Positions 3,965 through 14,947 of a stretch of DNA of 64,000 nt are shown here, piece by piece. The first letter of the stretch is position 1. Each line of letters opens with the position of its first letter. The notes beneath the pieces are model-generated. The model ran no database searches. It was not told the origin of the DNA and saw only the letters and a program-made list of their open reading frames with translations. The stretch comes from a virus (Duplodnaviria > Caudoviricetes). The translations under genes were made by a program, and so were the position numbers. Location: the IMG/VR virus record IMGVR_UViG_3300037755_000886, positions 1 through 64,000 of that record; one strand, 5' to 3'.

Positions 3965-4533
3965 GGGATCTCCTCGGTTGGCGGCACCGTCGGCAACGGG
4001 AACGTCGGCAACGGCGCCTGTGTCGTGGGCGCGGCGGTCGGCGCCGGGGGCAACGTCGGGGCAGGCGTCAGCCGGGCGGCCGGGACGGTCGTCAGCGGTG
4101 GGGCCGGAGGCCGGGTGGGGCGAGGCGCACGGGTCGGTGGCACGGTCGGCCGGGCGGTCGGCCTCGGTGCCGGCCGCGGCCTCGTGGTGACGACCGCGGG
4201 CACGGTGGTAGCCACGGCCACGGTCGATGTCGGGGGCACGGGCACGGTCACGGCAGCGAGCGCGGTCGTTGCCGTCGTCACGGTCGACGGGCTCGGCTGG
4301 CCTGCGCCCCCTGACCTGGAGGCCAGCAGCACGACCGCGCCGACGGCGAGCACGGTGACGACCAGGATCGCGGCGAGGGCCGGGCCCACGAACGGCGGGA
4401 CACCGGAGCGCTTCGGCTCGGGTGGGACGGGCGGCCGGGGCATCTGCGGGTCGGTCGGGTCATCGGCCGACGGCCGGGGCATGTCGAGGGTCGGGTCGTC
4501 GTCGCCGATGACCGCTGGTGGGTGGCAGGTCAT
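3961..4533 (-). CDS. Single-pass Pro/Thr-rich membrane protein
   Basis: TM ALAAILVVTVLAVGAVVLLA then P/T-rich tail; ATGA overlap. Confidence 0.7.
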   Translation of the reverse strand: MTCHPPAVIGDDDPTLDMPRPSADDPTDPQMPRPPVPPEPKRSGVPPFVGPALAAILVVTVLAVGAVVLLASRSGGAGQPSPSTVTTATTALAAVTVPVPPTSTVAVATTVPAVVTTRPRPAPRPTARPTVPPTRAPRPTRPPAPPLTTVPAARLTPAPTLPPAPTAAPTTQAPLPTFPLPTVPPTEEIP

Positions 4534-5330
4534 GACGCCTCCCGATGTGGTGGCGCGTCCGGGTGCGGGGTGGCCGGCACCCATTCGCCGTCGACGTAGC
4601 GGCCGGCCGGGAACGGGCTGGCGGCCCGGTCCTCGCCGCGTTCGACCCGCCGCACCTTCGCCTCCCGCGCATCCGAGTACCGGCGGGGCACCCGGTGCCG
4701 CCTCTTCCGCAGCCACATCTGGGCGCACGCCCCGCACTTCTTGCCCCCGGGCCGGGGCGGCATGTCACACCCCAAGGGGTTGTCGCAGCGTCGGCTCGCT
4801 GGCAGCTCCCCCGTCCCGTCGAAGTCGGCCAGGACACCCTGAAGGGCGGCGTGGGCCAGCAGCAACTGGACGGCGGCCGCGTGTGCGGTCTTGCGCACCT
4901 CGAGATCGTCGACGTCGGTGATGCCGTCATCGAGGAGCCACTGCAGCCGTCGGGCCGTGCTGTAGACGGTCTCGCTGAACCCGAACCGGCGGGGCAGCCG
5001 AACCCGGCGCGGGGTGCGGCCACGGATCTCGTGCATGGCCTTCACCGCGACCGTGGCCAACCGGTGGGCGTCCGGGGCTTTCATCTCGGCGACCTCGCAC
5101 GCGGCCCTCGCCTGGTCGTTGCCGATCCCCGGGTCGAAGCGGCGGCCCGGGATGTAGTCCGGGTTGTCGCTGTCGGCGGGCCGGTGCAGGCGGGTGGGCC
5201 GGTCCGGGTCGCGACCCGGCGGCAGGTCGACCTCGGCCCGGATCCACCCGTGGTCGTCGACGAGCGGGTCGGCGGCGTGGATGGCCGAGATGAGCGTCTC
5301 GGCGAGCTGCTCGTCGGTCGGGGCGTTCAA
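4530..5330 (-). CDS. Basic Zn-finger protein, possible late transcription regulator
   Basis: C-x4-C...C-x2-C near C-terminus; position upstream of the terminal gene block. Confidence 0.5.
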   Translation of the reverse strand: MNAPTDEQLAETLISAIHAADPLVDDHGWIRAEVDLPPGRDPDRPTRLHRPADSDNPDYIPGRRFDPGIGNDQARAACEVAEMKAPDAHRLATVAVKAMHEIRGRTPRRVRLPRRFGFSETVYSTARRLQWLLDDGITDVDDLEVRKTAHAAAVQLLLAHAALQGVLADFDGTGELPASRRCDNPLGCDMPPRPGGKKCGACAQMWLRKRRHRVPRRYSDAREAKVRRVERGEDRAASPFPAGRYVDGEWVPATPHPDAPPHREAS

Positions 5331-5536
5331 CGGGCACCGCCGGTGGTGACGGTCGGGTCAGTGGTGCGATGGGGGAGCTTCTCGGGCAACGGGGAGGTCT
5401 TGTTCTGTGTCACGTCAAAGCTCCTGGGACGATACGATCGGGCCGGGTTGCCGGGTTCGTCACAGTTCTCGGCGAAGCGGTGAAGCAATGGGGATTGCGG
5501 GCCGCCGCCGGGTCAGGTCGGCGGCCCGCTCGGGTC

Positions 5537-5760
5537 TCAGGCGATCAGCCCGTGCTGTCGCGCCTCGCGCACCCACGTCGGATACCCGGCGAGCAGCGAC
5601 GTGAACATCTCCTCGTCGGTGAACGACCGGGGGTCGGCGACAGCGAAGAAGTTGGCGTTGTCGATCAGCCGACCGGCGAGCGTCGATGGACACACCAGCC
5701 TGCTTGGTCAGGTTTGACGAGGCTCGGGGCGTGCTGTTGGACCTTCGCGAGGTCGATCAT
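5537..5760 (-). pseudogene. Internally deleted, frameshifted vWA (TerF-associated type) remnant
   Basis: MIDLAKVQQHAPSLV, then (after one extra A) NLTKQAGVSI, joined to TLAGRLIDNANFFAVADP..LLAGYPTWVREARQHGLIA. Confidence 0.6.
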
Positions 5761-6052
5761 CGGGGGTTCCTCTCGGGTTGGGGGTCGGTTTCGATGGCAT
5801 GGCACGGACATCGGCACGCCGCGGCGCACGTCTTGCAGTGCCGACGGCAGGGACCGCGCACGCCGGGCAGATCGCACAGGCCGTGAATGCAGTAGGTCGA
5901 CGTGTAGCGGTGGGCGCCGCCTTGCTCGGTGTCGCGCTGGTGAGCGAGCTGCTCAGCTCGGGCTGTCGTCCGCCCCCACAGCCACGCCATCACCGCGGCG
6001 GCAATCACGCCCGTGGCACCACAAGCGATGATGGCAGCCCACAACGGCACCA

Positions 6053-6316
6053 TCACCAATGCCTCGTGAGCTTGCCCGGGTTCGGACCTGCCGGCGGTGG
6101 CGGTGGCGCGTCCTCGGCGGCCGGCAACGTGGCGTCCCCCTCGATGCTCACACCGTCGACTGTGAGTGTGGCCGTCACCCGGCCGCGAGCTCCACGGATC
6201 GCCGCCTCCCACTCGATCCGGCGCACACCCGGGACTGGGAGCCCGTTGACCGTGACCACCGTGCCCTCGGGCGTGCCATCCGAGGCGATGTGGACCACTG
6301 ACCGGACCGTCATCAC
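6053..6316 (-). CDS. Small beta-rich hypothetical protein
   Basis: Coupled to DivIVA-domain gene by ATGA overlap. Confidence 0.6.
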   Translation of the reverse strand: MMTVRSVVHIASDGTPEGTVVTVNGLPVPGVRRIEWEAAIRGARGRVTATLTVDGVSIEGDATLPAAEDAPPPPPAGPNPGKLTRHW

Positions 6317-7059
6317 GCCACCACCGCGGGCGTCTCAACCTCGGGTGCCCCGTCGGTGTCACCTTCAGTCGGTTCGACAGCGGCGAGCGCGGCCCGCACG
6401 TCCGGCACAGCGGCCTCGATGCCGTCGAGGACCGCGACGAACTCGGCGCGCTGGTCATCCCACGCGCCACGGGACTCGACGAGCCGGGCCATGCGGTCCT
6501 CGACGTACCCGCGCATCGCCCGCTCCCATGCGTCGAGGAGCGCCTTGCATTCCTGCAGGTGGGCGGTCCGGGCCTCCAGGTTGGCGACCAGATCGTCGGT
6601 TGCCCGTGGCGGGTCGGGCAGCTCAGGTTCGGTGGGCACCCCGGTGGCCTCGTTGGCGTGGGCGAGCGCCGCTTCGGCCTGATCCCACATGGCCCGGGTG
6701 CGCTGGCGGACCTGACGGAGTTCCTCGCGGGCGGCAGCCAGGTCGTGTTCGGCCTGGGCGGTCGCCCGCACCATGGCGTCGACGGCCATCACGGAAGGGC
6801 CGGCGGGCCCGCGCGGGTCGTCCCGGGCCGCTTTCGCCTCGCGCAACGCCCGGGCCTCGGTGACCAGCAGGTCCCGTTCCTGCTCCCACTTCGTGGCCTC
6901 GGTCACCATCCGGTCGATGAACGGGTCAACCTCGGCGGGGTCGTAGCCGCCCCTGCCGCCCCTGCCGAGGCGGGAGAAGTGCGTAGAGCGAATCGTGGCG
7001 GCGGTCCACGGGAGCCGCCCGGTCTGGTCGGCGTCTGCGGGTTCGACGGGCGCGGTCAT
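6313..7059 (-). CDS. DivIVA-domain protein
   Basis: WTAATIRSTHFSRLGRGGRGGYDPAEVDPFIDRM followed by coiled coil. Confidence 0.8.
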   Translation of the reverse strand: MTAPVEPADADQTGRLPWTAATIRSTHFSRLGRGGRGGYDPAEVDPFIDRMVTEATKWEQERDLLVTEARALREAKAARDDPRGPAGPSVMAVDAMVRATAQAEHDLAAAREELRQVRQRTRAMWDQAEAALAHANEATGVPTEPELPDPPRATDDLVANLEARTAHLQECKALLDAWERAMRGYVEDRMARLVESRGAWDDQRAEFVAVLDGIEAAVPDVRAALAAVEPTEGDTDGAPEVETPAVVA

Positions 7060-7772
7060 GCTTCTCCTCCAAAGTGGTCAACGGGCTGGCCGAGCCGGAG
7101 CAGGTCACCGGGGCGGGCTTGGGCGAGCGCGAGGGTGAGCGGGTCGTCGTCGACGTCGACGTAGATCGCCCAATGGCCGCCGTCGACGTCGAAGGGCTGC
7201 ACGGGCATCCAGCCGCCGGGTGTGCCGTTGAGGCTGACGGGCACGGTCAGGCCGGGTGTCGCGGTCAGCTCGGCGGGCGGTTGGAACACGATGTAGGCCC
7301 GGTCGTGCTGGCGGGACAGCTCGACGAACAGGATCCGGCTGTCCCACCACTTCGGTTCGGCCAGTCGCTCGGCTTCCCGCGCGGCGGCGATCATGACTTG
7401 GGCGACGGTGGCGTACGCGTCGGTCCAGGTCTTCTCGACGTCGGGCGTCCAGGCGTCGCCGAGGAAATGCTCGAGGGTGGCGAGCAGGGCCTGGCCGACC
7501 GCCGGGTAGTGCCCCTCGATGGCCCCGAACCGGCGGTGGCTGCGTCCTAGACGCTCGAGTTCGGGGACTACGACGGCGAGGTCGGCGGCGTGCGACACGA
7601 CCCGGCCAAGGACGTCGACGAGTTTGGCCCGCTGGTGGGACATGTCGGCGACCGGGAACAGCTGGCGGGTCCCGGGGTACTCCAGGAACAGCCACGAGTA
7701 GAACCAGCTGACGAGGCGGTCACCGTGCCGGGAGGCGTCAGCCCACGTGCCCTTGAGGAGGTCAGGATCCAC
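7056..7772 (-). CDS. Globin (flavohaemoglobin-like) with truncated or degenerate FAD-binding barrel
   Basis: FY..LF..YP.TRQLFP..HQRAKL..LG..H(F8)RRFG..HYPAVGQALL..W..AY; no NAD-binding domain. Confidence 0.9.
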   Translation of the reverse strand: MDPDLLKGTWADASRHGDRLVSWFYSWLFLEYPGTRQLFPVADMSHQRAKLVDVLGRVVSHAADLAVVVPELERLGRSHRRFGAIEGHYPAVGQALLATLEHFLGDAWTPDVEKTWTDAYATVAQVMIAAAREAERLAEPKWWDSRILFVELSRQHDRAYIVFQPPAELTATPGLTVPVSLNGTPGGWMPVQPFDVDGGHWAIYVDVDDDPLTLALAQARPGDLLRLGQPVDHFGGEA

Positions 7773-8682
7773 TGGCGGTCCCCGCTTTCGCCGCCCGTTT
7801 GCCGGCCGTCAGCTCCGGTGGCCGTCCGAGTTCGACGGGCTCGACGCCGTGCAGGGCGACCGCGACCCGGGGTGGCCCGTCGCCTCCCAACAGGGCGAGC
7901 GCGGCCGTGGCCGCTGTCTGCTGTGCCAGGGCTTTGGTGCGCACCCGCTCGTCCTGCTCCAACACCCACCCGGCTTCGGCCTCGATGCCGCCGTCGGGGA
8001 TCGGGTTGATGTCGACCGCCTGGGCTTTCGCCCCCTCAATCATCTCGTCGGCGACCGCTCGCGCGGCTCGGACCACGTCCGCGGCACGCCGTTGCGCGTC
8101 GGCTTCGATCATGGCGGCCCGACGCTTTGCGTCGGCGACCGTCTGCTCGGCGACCGTACGGGCCCGGGTGACCATCCCGTCGGCCGCGGCCTGGCCCTGA
8201 GCCATCACGTCCGCGCGGCGGCGCTCCAAGCCGAGGATCTGGGCGTCGAGGGCACGCTCCCGCTCGTCGAGCGTGCCGCTGTCGCCGGCCAGCTTCGTGT
8301 TGGCCTCGGTCAGCTGGGCGACCTCGGCGGCCAGCTCGCCGAGCCGTTCGTCGACCTCAACGGTCCGGTAGACCGGGCCCCACCGCAAGGATCGGCGCAC
8401 GGTCAACCGGTCATCCGGTTCGGCGGTGTCAGGGTCCCAGTCGGGGCCCAGCCAGTCGGCGGAGGGTGAGGTTGTCGGGATGTCGATGGTCACGGGCATG
8501 GGGTTCTCCTCTGGGGTCGGGCTCTCGTTCTCCATGTCCAGGAACAGGCCGGCCAAGGGGTGGGTCTCGGGGTGTTTGCCGAGGTCCGACTTGAACGAGC
8601 CGAGGGCGTTCGCGAGGTCGCCGCTGTCGAGGTACTCGACGGCCCGTTGCTTGCACCAGGCGAGGTGGTCGTCGCGGGTCAT
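7762..8682 (-). CDS. DivIVA-like coiled-coil protein (probable start 8499) fused in frame to a small phage-type N-terminal ORF
   Basis: GPVYRTVEVDERLGELAAEV + A/Q/R coiled coil; GAGGAG RBS before ATG 8499; upstream MTRDDHLAWCKQRAVEY. Confidence 0.65.
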   Translation of the reverse strand: MTRDDHLAWCKQRAVEYLDSGDLANALGSFKSDLGKHPETHPLAGLFLDMENESPTPEENPMPVTIDIPTTSPSADWLGPDWDPDTAEPDDRLTVRRSLRWGPVYRTVEVDERLGELAAEVAQLTEANTKLAGDSGTLDERERALDAQILGLERRRADVMAQGQAAADGMVTRARTVAEQTVADAKRRAAMIEADAQRRAADVVRAARAVADEMIEGAKAQAVDINPIPDGGIEAEAGWVLEQDERVRTKALAQQTAATAALALLGGDGPPRVAVALHGVEPVELGRPPELTAGKRAAKAGTASGS

Positions 8683-8996
8683 GTCGTCTCCTCGGTTGGT
8701 CGTGTGTGCTCGGCGAGCCGGGCTGTGCCCTCGGCAGCGAGACGACCGACCCGTGCCGCCCGGGCCTCTTCGCCTCTTCGCATGCCTGCGTCCCCCGCGG
8801 TGAGCAGAGCGCACAGTCCCATCGGAACGGCCGACCAGTGCTGGATCGACGCTGCGTCGAGGGCCAGCACACCCCAGGCAATGGCGCCGACGGTGCAGCA
8901 CGTCGAGCTGAGCGGCTTGCGTCCGCCCACGAGCCACCACAGCGCCAACCAGGCCAGCGTGAGCAGGGCAAGACCGCCAACGGCGTCAGGGATCAC
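8679..8996 (-). CDS. Small membrane protein
   Basis: Two to three hydrophobic segments; coupled overlaps. Confidence 0.55.
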   Translation of the reverse strand: MIPDAVGGLALLTLAWLALWWLVGGRKPLSSTCCTVGAIAWGVLALDAASIQHWSAVPMGLCALLTAGDAGMRRGEEARAARVGRLAAEGTARLAEHTRPTEETT

Positions 8997-9268
8997 GGGC
9001 ACTCCTCGGTGATGGCGTCGAACAGGGCGGCCTCGGCGGGCGTGAGGTCGACGTCGTACGGCACCGTCAGCTCGGGCGGCAACGTCGGCCACCGGCTCAC
9101 CCGGGCGCAGCCGTCGCCCTTGAGCTTCCGGAGGATCGATCGCATCAGCCCGTTGTCGGCGGCCAGCCCGCGGTTCTCGGCGGCGAGGTGGCGGATGCGC
9201 TCCGCTTGCGTATCGCTACACAGTTCAGCGACCCGCAGGCGGGTGCGGGTGTGGGGCAGGCGGATCAC
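8993..9268 (-). CDS. Hypothetical protein
   Basis: GTGA coupling at both ends. Confidence 0.5.
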   Translation of the reverse strand: MIRLPHTRTRLRVAELCSDTQAERIRHLAAENRGLAADNGLMRSILRKLKGDGCARVSRWPTLPPELTVPYDVDLTPAEAALFDAITEECP

Positions 9269-9393
9269 GGCCGCCCCCACGTGATGACGAGTCCGAGGCA
9301 CGGCAGCGGGAAGACGTAGACCCGGCGCTTCGGGCGGTCGATGAACACGCCGACCCAGATGTCGAACCAGGCGAAGATCGGGCGGACGCTCAT
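9265..9393 (-). CDS. 42-aa small phage protein
   Basis: MSVRPIFAWFDIWVGVFIDRPKRRVYVFPLPCLGLVITWGAAV; GAGGAGG RBS; read manually. Confidence 0.65.
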   Translation of the reverse strand: MSVRPIFAWFDIWVGVFIDRPKRRVYVFPLPCLGLVITWGRP

Positions 9394-9620
9394 GGCCGAC
9401 CTCCTCTCGGCAGGTGCTCAGCGTGCACGTAACTGTCATCGTCCATGAGTGCGATCTCCTCGCCGGGTTCGATCGGGTCGCGGCACCGGTCACAGGTGCC
9501 GCGGTACATGGCCTCGAACACGCGCAGGGCCTTAGGCGCTGGCCGCTCCGGTGGTTTGCCGTCGAGACAGTCGAGGCACGCCGCCGCTATGTCGCCGTGG
9601 GGGCAGAGGTCGGCGGTCAT
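9390..9620 (-). CDS. Zn-binding hypothetical protein
   Basis: CPH..CLDC and CDRC..H motifs. Confidence 0.6.
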   Translation of the reverse strand: MTADLCPHGDIAAACLDCLDGKPPERPAPKALRVFEAMYRGTCDRCRDPIEPGEEIALMDDDSYVHAEHLPRGGRP

Positions 9621-9841
9621 GACCGCACCCCGCAGACGACCAGCCCGTCGTCCGGGTCGGGCATCTCGAAGACCTCTGCGATCCGCTCCAGCAGGGCGTC
9701 ACTCGGTGTGTCCCGGCCGGCTTCGATCTTCGAGATGTAGGGGTGGCCGACCCCGACCCGGGCGGCGAGACCCCGTTGCGACATACCTCGCTCGACGCGT
9801 TCACGCTTGAGTCGTTCACCGATGGACTCGCGGGCGCTCAT
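9617..9841 (-). CDS. XRE-family HTH regulator
   Basis: IGERLKRER..GMSQRGLAARVGVGHPYISKIEAG..PS. Confidence 0.9.
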   Translation of the reverse strand: MSARESIGERLKRERVERGMSQRGLAARVGVGHPYISKIEAGRDTPSDALLERIAEVFEMPDPDDGLVVCGVRS

Positions 9842-10083
9842 GGCCGCACCTCCGCGCAGACCAGCACCGAGGCGAGCCCGGCCGGCGTGACGACCACCTC
9901 AACGTCGAGGCCGGCGCCGCGCCATTCGACCTGCACGCCGCCGTCGGACATGGGCACGGCCGAGACGGACTCGACGAGGCGCCGTGCCACGGCGATAGCT
10001 GTGCTGGCCGGCGGACGACCGCCGTAGGAGTCCCAGTTCTCGGGCAGGGCCGCCAGCTCGTCCCACGTGTCGGGGGTGATCAC
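9838..10083 (-). CDS. Hypothetical protein
   Basis: LPENWDSYGG..PMSDGGVQVEW pattern; coupled. Confidence 0.6.
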   Translation of the reverse strand: MITPDTWDELAALPENWDSYGGRPPASTAIAVARRLVESVSAVPMSDGGVQVEWRGAGLDVEVVVTPAGLASVLVCAEVRP

Positions 10084-10253
10084 GCGTCCTCGCCTTCGCC
10101 GTAGACGGGGCAGATGCACGACGGGCCACGCCGGGGGTCGCCGCCGCAGCCACCGCACGTCTCAGGGTCGAAGCCGGCCTTGAGGGCATCGCAGACGGCG
10201 GGCAGGCGCTCGTAGTGCGGGCAGGACCTGAGGAGATCGGCGGGGGTGGTCAT
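10080..10253 (-). CDS. Small Cys-rich protein
   Basis: Coupled ATGA/GTGA overlaps. Confidence 0.5.
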   Translation of the reverse strand: MTTPADLLRSCPHYERLPAVCDALKAGFDPETCGGCGGDPRRGPSCICPVYGEGEDA

Positions 10254-10591
10254 GCCCCCGCCTCTCGCTCGGTCGCCCACGCGAGGAGGGCGGCCTTGTC
10301 GAGGAACACCGGGATGCCGTGCTCCTCGGCGTAACACACCTCGTTGTCGGCGCCCGTGCTCTTCCCCGGCAAACGCAACATGGCGTCGCAGTGGTCGACG
10401 AGGTCAAGGTCGAACGCATACCAGTCCTCGCACGGCATCGGGCACACGAGATCGGAGAGCAACGACAGATGTGGGATGAGGGGCGCGACGAGGCCGGTGC
10501 GCCACAGGGCCATGCCCTCCTCGATCACACGGCGCGTGTTGCCAACCGGATCCGACGAGTACGGGGCGGCGATGTACACGAGGGGCTTCAC
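10250..10591 (-). CDS. Nucleoside deoxyribosyltransferase-like (DUF4406-type) protein
   Basis: VYIAAPYS..PH..W...DL..VDHCDAMLRLPGKSTGADNEV.YA...GIPV. Confidence 0.75.
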   Translation of the reverse strand: MKPLVYIAAPYSSDPVGNTRRVIEEGMALWRTGLVAPLIPHLSLLSDLVCPMPCEDWYAFDLDLVDHCDAMLRLPGKSTGADNEVCYAEEHGIPVFLDKAALLAWATEREAGA

Positions 10592-14564: not shown

Positions 14565-14947
14565 GACGCTGCCGCCTGCCACGCTCGGGCCCCGCTCAGC
14601 CGCTTGCGTTCGCGGGTTGCCATGGCGCCCCAGATTCCGAAACGCTCCGCGCGTGCGAGCGCGTCCTCCAAGCATTCGGCCTTGACCACGCACCCACGGC
14701 ACACAGCCTTGGGCGTGTCGGTGTCACCGCCGCGCTCCGGGTAGAACAGGGCCGGGTCGAGGCCGCGGCAGTTGGCGGACGCATGCCAGCGCGGCCTCGG
14801 TGGCAAGGTCGGCAGGCGGGGCTCGCGCCGGCGCGTCGGGGGCGCGCTCGGCGGGTGCGCGGTCAACGCCACCCACTCGCCGCGGGTCAGGCTGTCGACG
14901 TCAGGGCCGTCGGGGCCGACCGACTCGGAGGCGTCTCGGAGGTTCAC
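14561..14947 (-). CDS. whiB: WhiB-family Fe-S transcription factor
   Basis: Four Cys (ANC..VCRGC..EC), LFYP, FGIWG turn. Confidence 0.9.
   Translation of the reverse strand: MNLRDASESVGPDGPDVDSLTRGEWVALTAHPPSAPPTRRREPRLPTLPPRPRWHASANCRGLDPALFYPERGGDTDTPKAVCRGCVVKAECLEDALARAERFGIWGAMATRERKRLSGARAWQAAAS

Follow-up and report, generated by a model that had tools for sequence, protein, structure and literature searches.

A phage-borne, reductase-less flavohaemoglobin-type globin paired with a DivIVA-family protein, and its putative origin in an actinobacterial operon

The first 64,000 nucleotides of the virus record IMGVR_UViG_3300037755_000886 (Duplodnaviria; Caudoviricetes), hereafter the window, carry on the minus strand a gene for a truncated flavohaemoglobin-type globin and, overlapping its end, a gene for a protein of the DivIVA family, and it is this pair that is analysed here. 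The record as a whole measures 83.8 kb in IMG/VR, is linear and, according to CheckV, about 90% complete. Several described systems come close to one or the other of the two proteins. The type II flavohaemoglobins of mycobacteria are reported to be restricted to actinomycetes, to be membrane-associated and to be antioxidants that limit lipid peroxidation (PMC8883573). This class (Rv0385 / MSMEG_0719) seems to resemble the nearest cellular relatives of the phage globin, which are actinomycete globin-FNR proteins; unlike them, the window protein has neither the nicotinamide adenine dinucleotide (NAD) domain nor the flavin adenine dinucleotide (FAD) motifs, and a coupling to DivIVA is absent from the account in PMC8883573. 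The Hmp proteins of E. coli (1gvh) and C. necator (1cqx) superpose on both the globin and the barrel of the window protein (template modelling score of the query, TMq, 0.71-0.76), which nevertheless lacks their NAD domain and their RxYS motif and scores far under the equivalog cut-off. Single-domain globins such as Vitreoscilla haemoglobin and Hell's Gate globin I (3s1i, the best sequence match in the PDB, E 1e-21) share the globin fold and the pocket but have no barrel, whereas the window protein keeps one, apparently cofactor-less. Finally, globin-coupled sensors and the Roadblock-fused HGbRL (3wfw) likewise join a haem globin to a non-enzymatic module, and the globin of HGbRL is the third-best PDB sequence match of the window globin (E 1.1e-18). 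Unlike theirs, the window globin is of the F type, an operon and a presumed complex stand in for the fusion, and a scaffold takes the place of the signalling partner.

On the DivIVA side, the second protein shares with DivIVA, Wag31 and GpsB the N-terminal domain and the long coiled coils, with profile matches along most of its length, but differs from them as a separate, globin-tied paralogue whose phage form bears the motifs LP.EP and HLQxC and a diverged C-terminus. A phage product tied to the actinobacterial DivIVA system has a precedent in Fruitloop gp52, a small mycobacteriophage protein that, according to the passage of PMC7474061 in which it is cited, binds the host Wag31; what is cited there is binding to the host protein, while the phage of the window encodes a DivIVA homologue of its own plus a haem protein. 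The original prediction, made from the window alone, knew of no characterised system of this kind, and the literature search agrees: no paper in the searched literature treats DivIVA jointly with a flavohaemoglobin, a truncated haemoglobin or a globin, and for cultured phages a haemoglobin-family gene was found neither in that literature nor in a collection of 50,697 records. Both protein families are known, and what seems to be new is their coupling at the operon level, the capture by phages and the reductase-less form. To our knowledge, no physiological role has been settled for the actinomycete-specific flavohaemoglobins, and little is understood of DivIVA paralogues other than Wag31. A tight flavohaemoglobin-DivIVA coupling offers both fields a concrete, testable hypothesis, of interest to those who work on globins or on the cell biology of actinobacteria, and the locus provides an example of a phage-carried haemoglobin-family gene.

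The globin and its DivIVA-family partner

The pair and its junction read as follows:

7056..7772, minus strand: truncated flavohaemoglobin-type protein of 238 amino acids (aa), with the globin at residues 3-136, a putatively FAD-less beta-barrel at 143-227 and no NAD domain
6313..7059, minus strand: DivIVA-family paralogue of 248 aa, with a DivIVA/GpsB-type N-domain encoded at 6910-7005 followed by long helices
7056..7070, minus strand: translational-coupling junction GGAGGAGAAGCATGA, with a Shine-Dalgarno sequence and the partner ATG (7059-7057) overlapping the globin TGA (7058-7056)

Both genes belong to a chain in which stops and starts overlap (9092-8679, 8682-7762, 7772-7056, 7059-6313, 6316-6053 and probably 6053-5757), so the close linkage described in the original prediction holds on the minus strand. 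Between globin and partner the overlap is the four nucleotides ATGA, behind what the sequence reads as a strong Shine-Dalgarno sequence (GGAGGAG).

The 238-aa protein matches the Pfam family Globin (PF00042, E 1.7e-14) with a complete haem pocket: Y25 (B10), F39 (CD1), Q47 (E7), H79 (F8) and Y89 (G5), invariant or nearly so among 120 relatives, align with their counterparts in Hell's Gate globin I. The proximal His, B10 Tyr and E7 Gln that had been noticed at the outset are thus all in place. Its best sequence matches in the PDB are Hell's Gate globin I, the HGbRL globin, Vitreoscilla haemoglobin and flavohaemoglobins. An AlphaFold2 model built from an alignment of relatives (predicted local distance difference test, pLDDT, 93.5; predicted template modelling score, pTM, 0.87) joins the globin (3-136) to the beta-barrel (143-227), and the top Foldseek matches of this model are flavohaemoglobins (1cqx, 3ozu, 4g1v and 1gvh) with both domains aligned at TMq 0.71-0.76. 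The nearest cellular relatives are actinomycete globin-FNR proteins of 370-390 aa (globin, FAD_binding_6 and NAD_binding_1), 40-46% identical over 97% of the query, and the C-terminus of the phage protein falls exactly at the start of their GGTG motif.

What follows the globin had been described as a degenerate FAD barrel without an NAD domain, which the analysis bears out: the barrel can be modelled, its flavin motifs are replaced, and no NAD-binding domain (PF00175) was found in the globin or elsewhere in the 83.8-kb record. A split gene with the NAD domain encoded at another place in the record was considered and rejected for that reason. Pfam FAD_binding_6 goes undetected in the protein, though the barrel fold is predicted. 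When 11 short phage globins were compared column by column with 99 full-length cellular forms, all globin residues conserved in the cellular proteins proved to be retained in the short ones, in which the Arg of the RxYS motif (position 189), present in 98% of the cellular forms, is L or M, the Tyr and Ser of the same motif are likewise substituted, and further replacements are fixed in the barrel (H204->Y, G209->D, S213->T, A194->F and P197->D). With its flavin-contact residues replaced, the phage barrel has very probably lost FAD binding. Of the traits of Hmp-type proteins, the globin domain with F8 His, B10 Tyr and E7 Gln is present and the FAD motifs and the NAD(P)H domain are absent, with a score of 69.7 bits against the Hmp equivalog NF009805 (cut-off 432). 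Nor does the protein qualify as a globin-coupled sensor, given that its globin is of the flavohaemoglobin type and its C-terminal domain is the flavohaemoglobin barrel and not a signalling domain.

Within the phage clade, conservation of the barrel matches that of the globin domain (0.69 vs 0.71). The ratio of nonsynonymous to synonymous substitution rates (dN/dS) was taken from close pairs only, since distant pairs are unreliable with GC3 (G+C content at third codon positions) saturated. For contigs L004 and L010 it amounts to 0.19 in the globin domain, 0.15 in the barrel and 0.13 in the partner; the globins of the window and of contig L021 give 0.17. Purifying selection acts on all three, globin domain, barrel and partner. 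In this respect the phage lineage amounts to a natural deletion experiment, in which the reductase has been discarded and the haem pocket, the barrel and the partner have been kept; the retained parts would therefore be the core of the module's role.

The 248-aa partner is, by its profile matches and predicted structure, a true, divergent member of the DivIVA family. It scores 23.3 bits against the DivIVA N-domain model TIGR03544, above the cut-off of 22, and 21.1 bits against PF05103, below the gathering score of 28, and the latter model matches 8 of 25 aligned partner-family members and outliers (best E 6e-17). Searched against the PDB, the family profile finds the N-domain of Wag31 first (6lfa, E 6.9e-5) and then those of GpsB and DivIVA. 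The N-domain follows the pattern FxxxGxxGYxxxEVDxF, with hydrophobic and basic residues in the loop following F28, the one hint in the sequence of binding to negatively curved membrane and of a polar or septal location, and the helices carry AVDAxVRA..QAE, LP.EP and HLQxC. In the AlphaFold2 model (pLDDT 83.8) a short helix and a hairpin form the N-domain and are followed by helices at 41-80, 90-139 and 157-227; the top 10 Foldseek matches of this model are all GpsB N-domains, with weak E-values, none of them significant. Profile-profile alignment with hhalign gives 98.5% (E 3.6e-15, 160 columns) for the phage partner against the DivIVA paralogues linked to globins in cells, and 98.1% against Wag31-like proteins; the HLQxC segment aligns to an AYLRTF segment of the globin-linked cellular paralogues. 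An exhaustive profile search recovers some 20 relatives that match over their full length, followed by hundreds of proteins in which DivIVA N-domains stand in tandem, and in the Atlas the nearest clusters are DivIVA and Wag31. Partner patterns run against 185,579 species genomes hit only generic DivIVA genes of Dyadobacter and Bacillota.

The pair in phages and in actinomycetes

The window encodes an integrase, an endolysin, helicases, methyltransferases and an FtsK-like gene, and the globin-DivIVA module lies inside a long leftward operon of early-type genes; a scan of 4300-10500 for promoters and terminators found nothing exceeding chance. One further gene bears on the host:

14597-14788, minus strand: WhiB-family gene (PF02467, 72 bits)

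Together, WhiB, the G+C content of the window (about 70%) and the relationships of its proteins indicate a temperate phage whose host belongs to the Actinomycetota, an assignment at the level of the phylum. A WhiB gene also stands a few genes upstream of the globin in the related contigs L002, L003 and L016. The replicative helicase has no close relative among cultured phages, and a tblastn search with globin and partner against the 50,697 cultured phage records returned zero matches.

Among uncultured phages the picture is different. The short globins of related contigs measure about 235-245 aa and are 42-64% identical to that of the window, and their contigs carry phage-type neighbours (terminase, Prim-Pol primase, WhiB, methyltransferases, DUF5131 and integrase). 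In all these related phage loci the short globin is followed, after a 4-nt overlap, by a gene homologous to that of the partner. Conversely, in the loci found through the partner a globin stands immediately upstream wherever the contig extends that far, which makes about 18 phage-like loci overall. The adjacency persists down to 43% identity of the globin and 32% of the partner (contig L013). What precedes the globin varies among loci, being a protein of 66-74 aa, a DHHA1 protein or the coiled coil found in the window. Since this upstream gene varies and the 87-aa gene downstream of the partner is without counterpart, the conserved unit is the pair and not a trio. Scanning JGI metagenomes yielded one true relative, already represented as L005, and an IMG/VR scan with patterns from the truncated globins found nothing.

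A second IMG/VR scan, this time with the full-length alignment, brought up four viral contigs (13-151 kb) that carry an intact globin-FNR:

L121:4001-5712, L122:4001-5793, L123:712-2528 and L124:4001-5809: pairs of intact globin-FNR and DivIVA paralogue in IMG/VR phage contigs

In these, the globin-FNR retains the motifs RxYS, GGxLS, GSTG and CGS/CGP and the gene directly after it encodes a DivIVA paralogue (E 1e-19 to 1e-25 against the profile of the cellular partners). They encode no truncated haemoglobin, and the pairs adjoin portal or tail-fibre-like genes in a moron-like manner.

Where does such a pair come from? The closest named cellular relative of the phage globin, a globin-FNR of 373 aa, comes from Microtetraspora sp. 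NBRC 16547, where the gene order is truncated haemoglobin (PF01152), globin-FNR and then, with a 4-nt overlap, a 213-aa DivIVA-domain protein. By hhalign the latter is a homologue of the phage partner (97%, E 5e-11), and it is distinct from the Wag31-like gene of that genome; in general, the globin-linked DivIVA paralogues share only about 30% identity with the housekeeping Wag31-like gene of the same genomes. A survey of 301 sampled Actinomycetes genomes found the globin-FNR family in 73 of them and the full arrangement in 16, from several families, the last two genes overlapping by 4 nt in 14 of the 16:

L038:4620-6760, and also L069-L083 and L094: cellular trio operons of truncated haemoglobin, globin-FAD-NAD protein and DivIVA paralogue

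The survey tallies 28/301 and 73/301 include the unpublished genomes G015, G024 and G007, from which none of the 16 linked loci comes and whose sequences stand outside all trees and alignments. The genes around the cellular trio are unrelated between genomes, so that in cells the trio is the conserved unit; no description of this three-gene operon was found in the searched literature. In the window no truncated haemoglobin accompanies the pair: a phage copy was looked for and rejected, as the 83.8-kb record encodes none.

In a tree of the globin-plus-barrel region, the globin-FNR paralogues that are not linked to DivIVA form one derived clade (support 100/97) and the linked forms a grade, among which the 13 short phage globins make up a single clade (100/100) on a long stem of 1.2 changes per site. 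The phage globin is thus homologous to the actinomycete-restricted class of 370-390 aa and its clade is nested among the members. By these comparisons the phage pair is host-derived and not a phage invention, namely a remodelled copy of the host operon. Capture of a globin-DivIVA pair by phages has possibly happened more than once; an approximately unbiased (AU) test on a single acquisition of the short and the full-length phage globins gives p 0.108, which does not decide.

That the globin and the DivIVA-type protein work together, as the original prediction had it, is strongly supported by this co-conservation in the related phage loci, in cells and in the other phages. The hijacking of host DivIVA that it had also proposed is not needed to account for the pairing, because the partner appears to descend from, or to be closest to, the dedicated globin-linked DivIVA paralogue of the hosts. 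Its further proposals, of polar tethering, of gas or redox sensing and of an effect on growth arrest or lysis timing, are conjectural. One could still argue that the adjacency is mere inherited synteny and that the truncated globin is a decaying remnant, or at least independent of the DivIVA paralogue, and the C-terminal halves of the phage and cellular partners do differ greatly. Yet adjacency and 4-nt overlap have been kept in cells and in at least two kinds of phage while all the flanking genes change, dN/dS lies at 0.13-0.19 for all parts, and in the phage clade the barrel equals the globin domain in conservation, all of which leaves a missing functional link very improbable.

The distribution among hosts bears on another explanation, in which the module acts as a decoy: a reductase-dead globin and a divergent paralogue would enter or block, in a dominant-negative manner, the host flavohaemoglobin-DivIVA complex or the Wag31 assemblies, leading to an arrest of polar growth or to superinfection exclusion. 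In the DivIVA/GpsB family the N-domain and the coiled coil mediate oligomerisation, and the partner has both of these parts. In addition, the globin is no longer catalytically self-sufficient, the module sits within a long leftward operon of early-type genes, and Fruitloop gp52 gives a precedent for a phage protein acting on Wag31, at least as cited in PMC7474061. Nonetheless, a decoy would have no need of a fully conserved haem pocket, and the cellular operon occurs in just those 16 of the 301 sampled genomes, so that many potential hosts would offer no target. Moreover, no similarity to any protein of the 50,697 cultured phage records was seen. Taken together, this explanation seems unlikely.

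Possible roles of the module

The reading that we favour, though tentatively and with somewhat less than an even chance of being right, is that of a two-gene module taken from an actinobacterial operon, in which the DivIVA paralogue places a haem-binding subunit at the membrane or the pole. A lineage of temperate actinophages would have taken the pair from the operon of truncated haemoglobin, type-II-like flavohaemoglobin and DivIVA paralogue; globin and partner would be made in a fixed proportion and form a complex, for which the remodelled, FAD-less barrel may be the docking surface, and the DivIVA-type N-domain and coiled coil would bring the haem protein to DivIVA-marked sites of the membrane or the pole. 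The membrane association of type II flavohaemoglobins (PMC8883573) fits such a membrane-directed module. Lacking an electron supply of its own, the phage globin would most likely be a subunit that binds O2, nitric oxide (NO) or redox signals, either as a sensor that alters the scaffold or as a local buffer, and a ligand-binding sensor or buffer is more likely than a self-sufficient NO dioxygenase. In this manner the module could tie the polar or membrane organisation of the infected cell to its gas or redox state.

Several points weigh against this interpretation. The C-terminal half of the phage partner has diverged from those of the cellular partners, and hmmsearch with the phage-partner profile misses the partners in L121-L124. 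The match to Wag31-like proteins nearly equals that to the linked paralogues (98.1% vs 98.5%), and descent from a linked paralogue is therefore argued mainly from synteny. Type II, the class of Rv0385 and MSMEG_0719, is no more than a likely name for the cellular family. As for the function, single-domain globins can detoxify NO with electrons from other reductases, and the loss of the reductase is therefore no proof of sensing.

This last point leads to protection against stress, in which the globin turns over NO, O2 or peroxide by means of host reductases and the partner is merely a membrane anchor, so that respiration, lipids or Fe-S proteins (for example the phage WhiB) are protected during infection or lysogeny. 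The full pocket of a flavohaemoglobin has indeed been kept (B10 Tyr, E7 Gln and G5 Tyr), the phage encodes both WhiB (14597-14788) and an integrase, and the intact reductase that other phages retain with the same partner argues that phages benefit from an enzymatic function; the type II class is, besides, reported to consist of membrane-associated antioxidants (PMC8883573). Against this, no reductase gene was found in the record, and the NAD domain is gone and all FAD contacts are replaced while the barrel is still under purifying selection, which a new role of the barrel explains more easily; the stem branch of 1.2 changes per site also suggests a change of function. Protection is possible, if on balance doubtful.

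A more far-reaching version of the favoured reading would make the two proteins a haem-based gas or redox sensor, in which the state of the haem alters the assembly of the DivIVA-type scaffold, or its binding of partners, and thereby controls polar growth or division. Phages would have captured this sensor repeatedly, and the present lineage would have pared it down to the part that senses, making the arrest of host growth or the timing of infection dependent on O2 or NO. So specific a scenario is rather improbable.

The upstream coiled coil and the other genes of the chain

The remaining genes around the pair are:

7762..8682, minus strand: Ala/Arg/Glu-rich coiled-coil protein of 306 aa from the ATG at 8682, or 245 aa from the ATG at 8499, with an 11-nt overlap with the globin start
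8679..9092, minus strand: predicted membrane protein, hydrophobic, 137 aa, whose stop overlaps the ATG at 8682 (ATGA)
6053..6316, minus strand: 87-aa protein whose start overlaps the partner stop (GC3 0.82)
5757..6053, minus strand: probable 98-aa protein, an uncalled open reading frame (ORF) whose ATG shares 1 nt with the stop of the 87-aa gene (GC3 0.79)
4530-5330, minus strand: 266-aa protein with a Cys cluster near the C-terminus and no family match

The original prediction placed the globin between two DivIVA-type proteins. This is correct for the downstream one, whose TIGR03544 match (23.3 bits vs 22, at 6910-7005) is the sole one in the record. It does not stand for the upstream one, in which the DivIVA N-domain is absent and the coiled coil scores below threshold: 20.4 bits against PF05103 (cut-off 28) and 23 against the Wag31 equivalog (cut-off 260). 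MutS2, FliH and V-ATPase E are matched comparably to the DivIVA coiled coil, all of them sub-threshold, and an Atlas score of 0.82 counts as a lead only. By these scores, the upstream coiled coil is not a demonstrable DivIVA. A single relative (67% identity) was found among 5.8 billion proteins, and it lies in contig L021, whose globin is 94% identical to that of the window. The neighbourhood survey proposed for all three genes accordingly retrieves the globin-partner pair as co-conserved and the upstream coiled coil only here and in L021; a conserved trio including it was rejected, since it occurs only in this phage and this one near relative.

Which of the two starts is used can be argued either way. 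The one at 8499 is backed by the L021 relative, which begins at the equivalent position, and that at 8682 by a Shine-Dalgarno sequence, the ATGA overlap and a GC3 of 0.95 over 8500-8682. The 61-codon stretch 8500-8682 (minus strand) is fused in frame to the coiled-coil gene, and L021 has instead a separate, unrelated 64-aa gene at that place; the stretch may reflect a gene fusion or an internal start. At the other end of the gene, the 11-nt overlap with the globin start (7762-7772) is common to the window and to L002, L004, L006, L010 and L021, whatever the upstream gene is. Because a TGA lies, in the other frame, within the conserved codons for the globin N-terminus (M-D-P/S-D), unrelated upstream genes all come to end in ..G-x-stop.

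The 137-aa membrane protein has no homologue in the related loci, the 87-aa protein has no family match and no counterpart there, and a comparison of the partner's neighbouring genes with PHROGs and Pfam gave nothing informative. The 98-aa ORF would encode an N-terminal hydrophobic helix and a Cys-rich tail with several CxxC-like spacings; in related phages a 61-aa hydrophobic protein stands directly after the partner gene, in the same place as this ORF. In the most divergent contig with a short globin (L013:11465-16943) the pair is followed by glycosyltransferase, UDP-glucose dehydrogenase and GH26-like genes, which look like a phage-borne polysaccharide module. Further downstream in the window, the 266-aa protein recurs at the same place after the globin module in L004, L010, L014, L016 and L017 (36-47% identity), and its gene seems to be part of the backbone of these phages.

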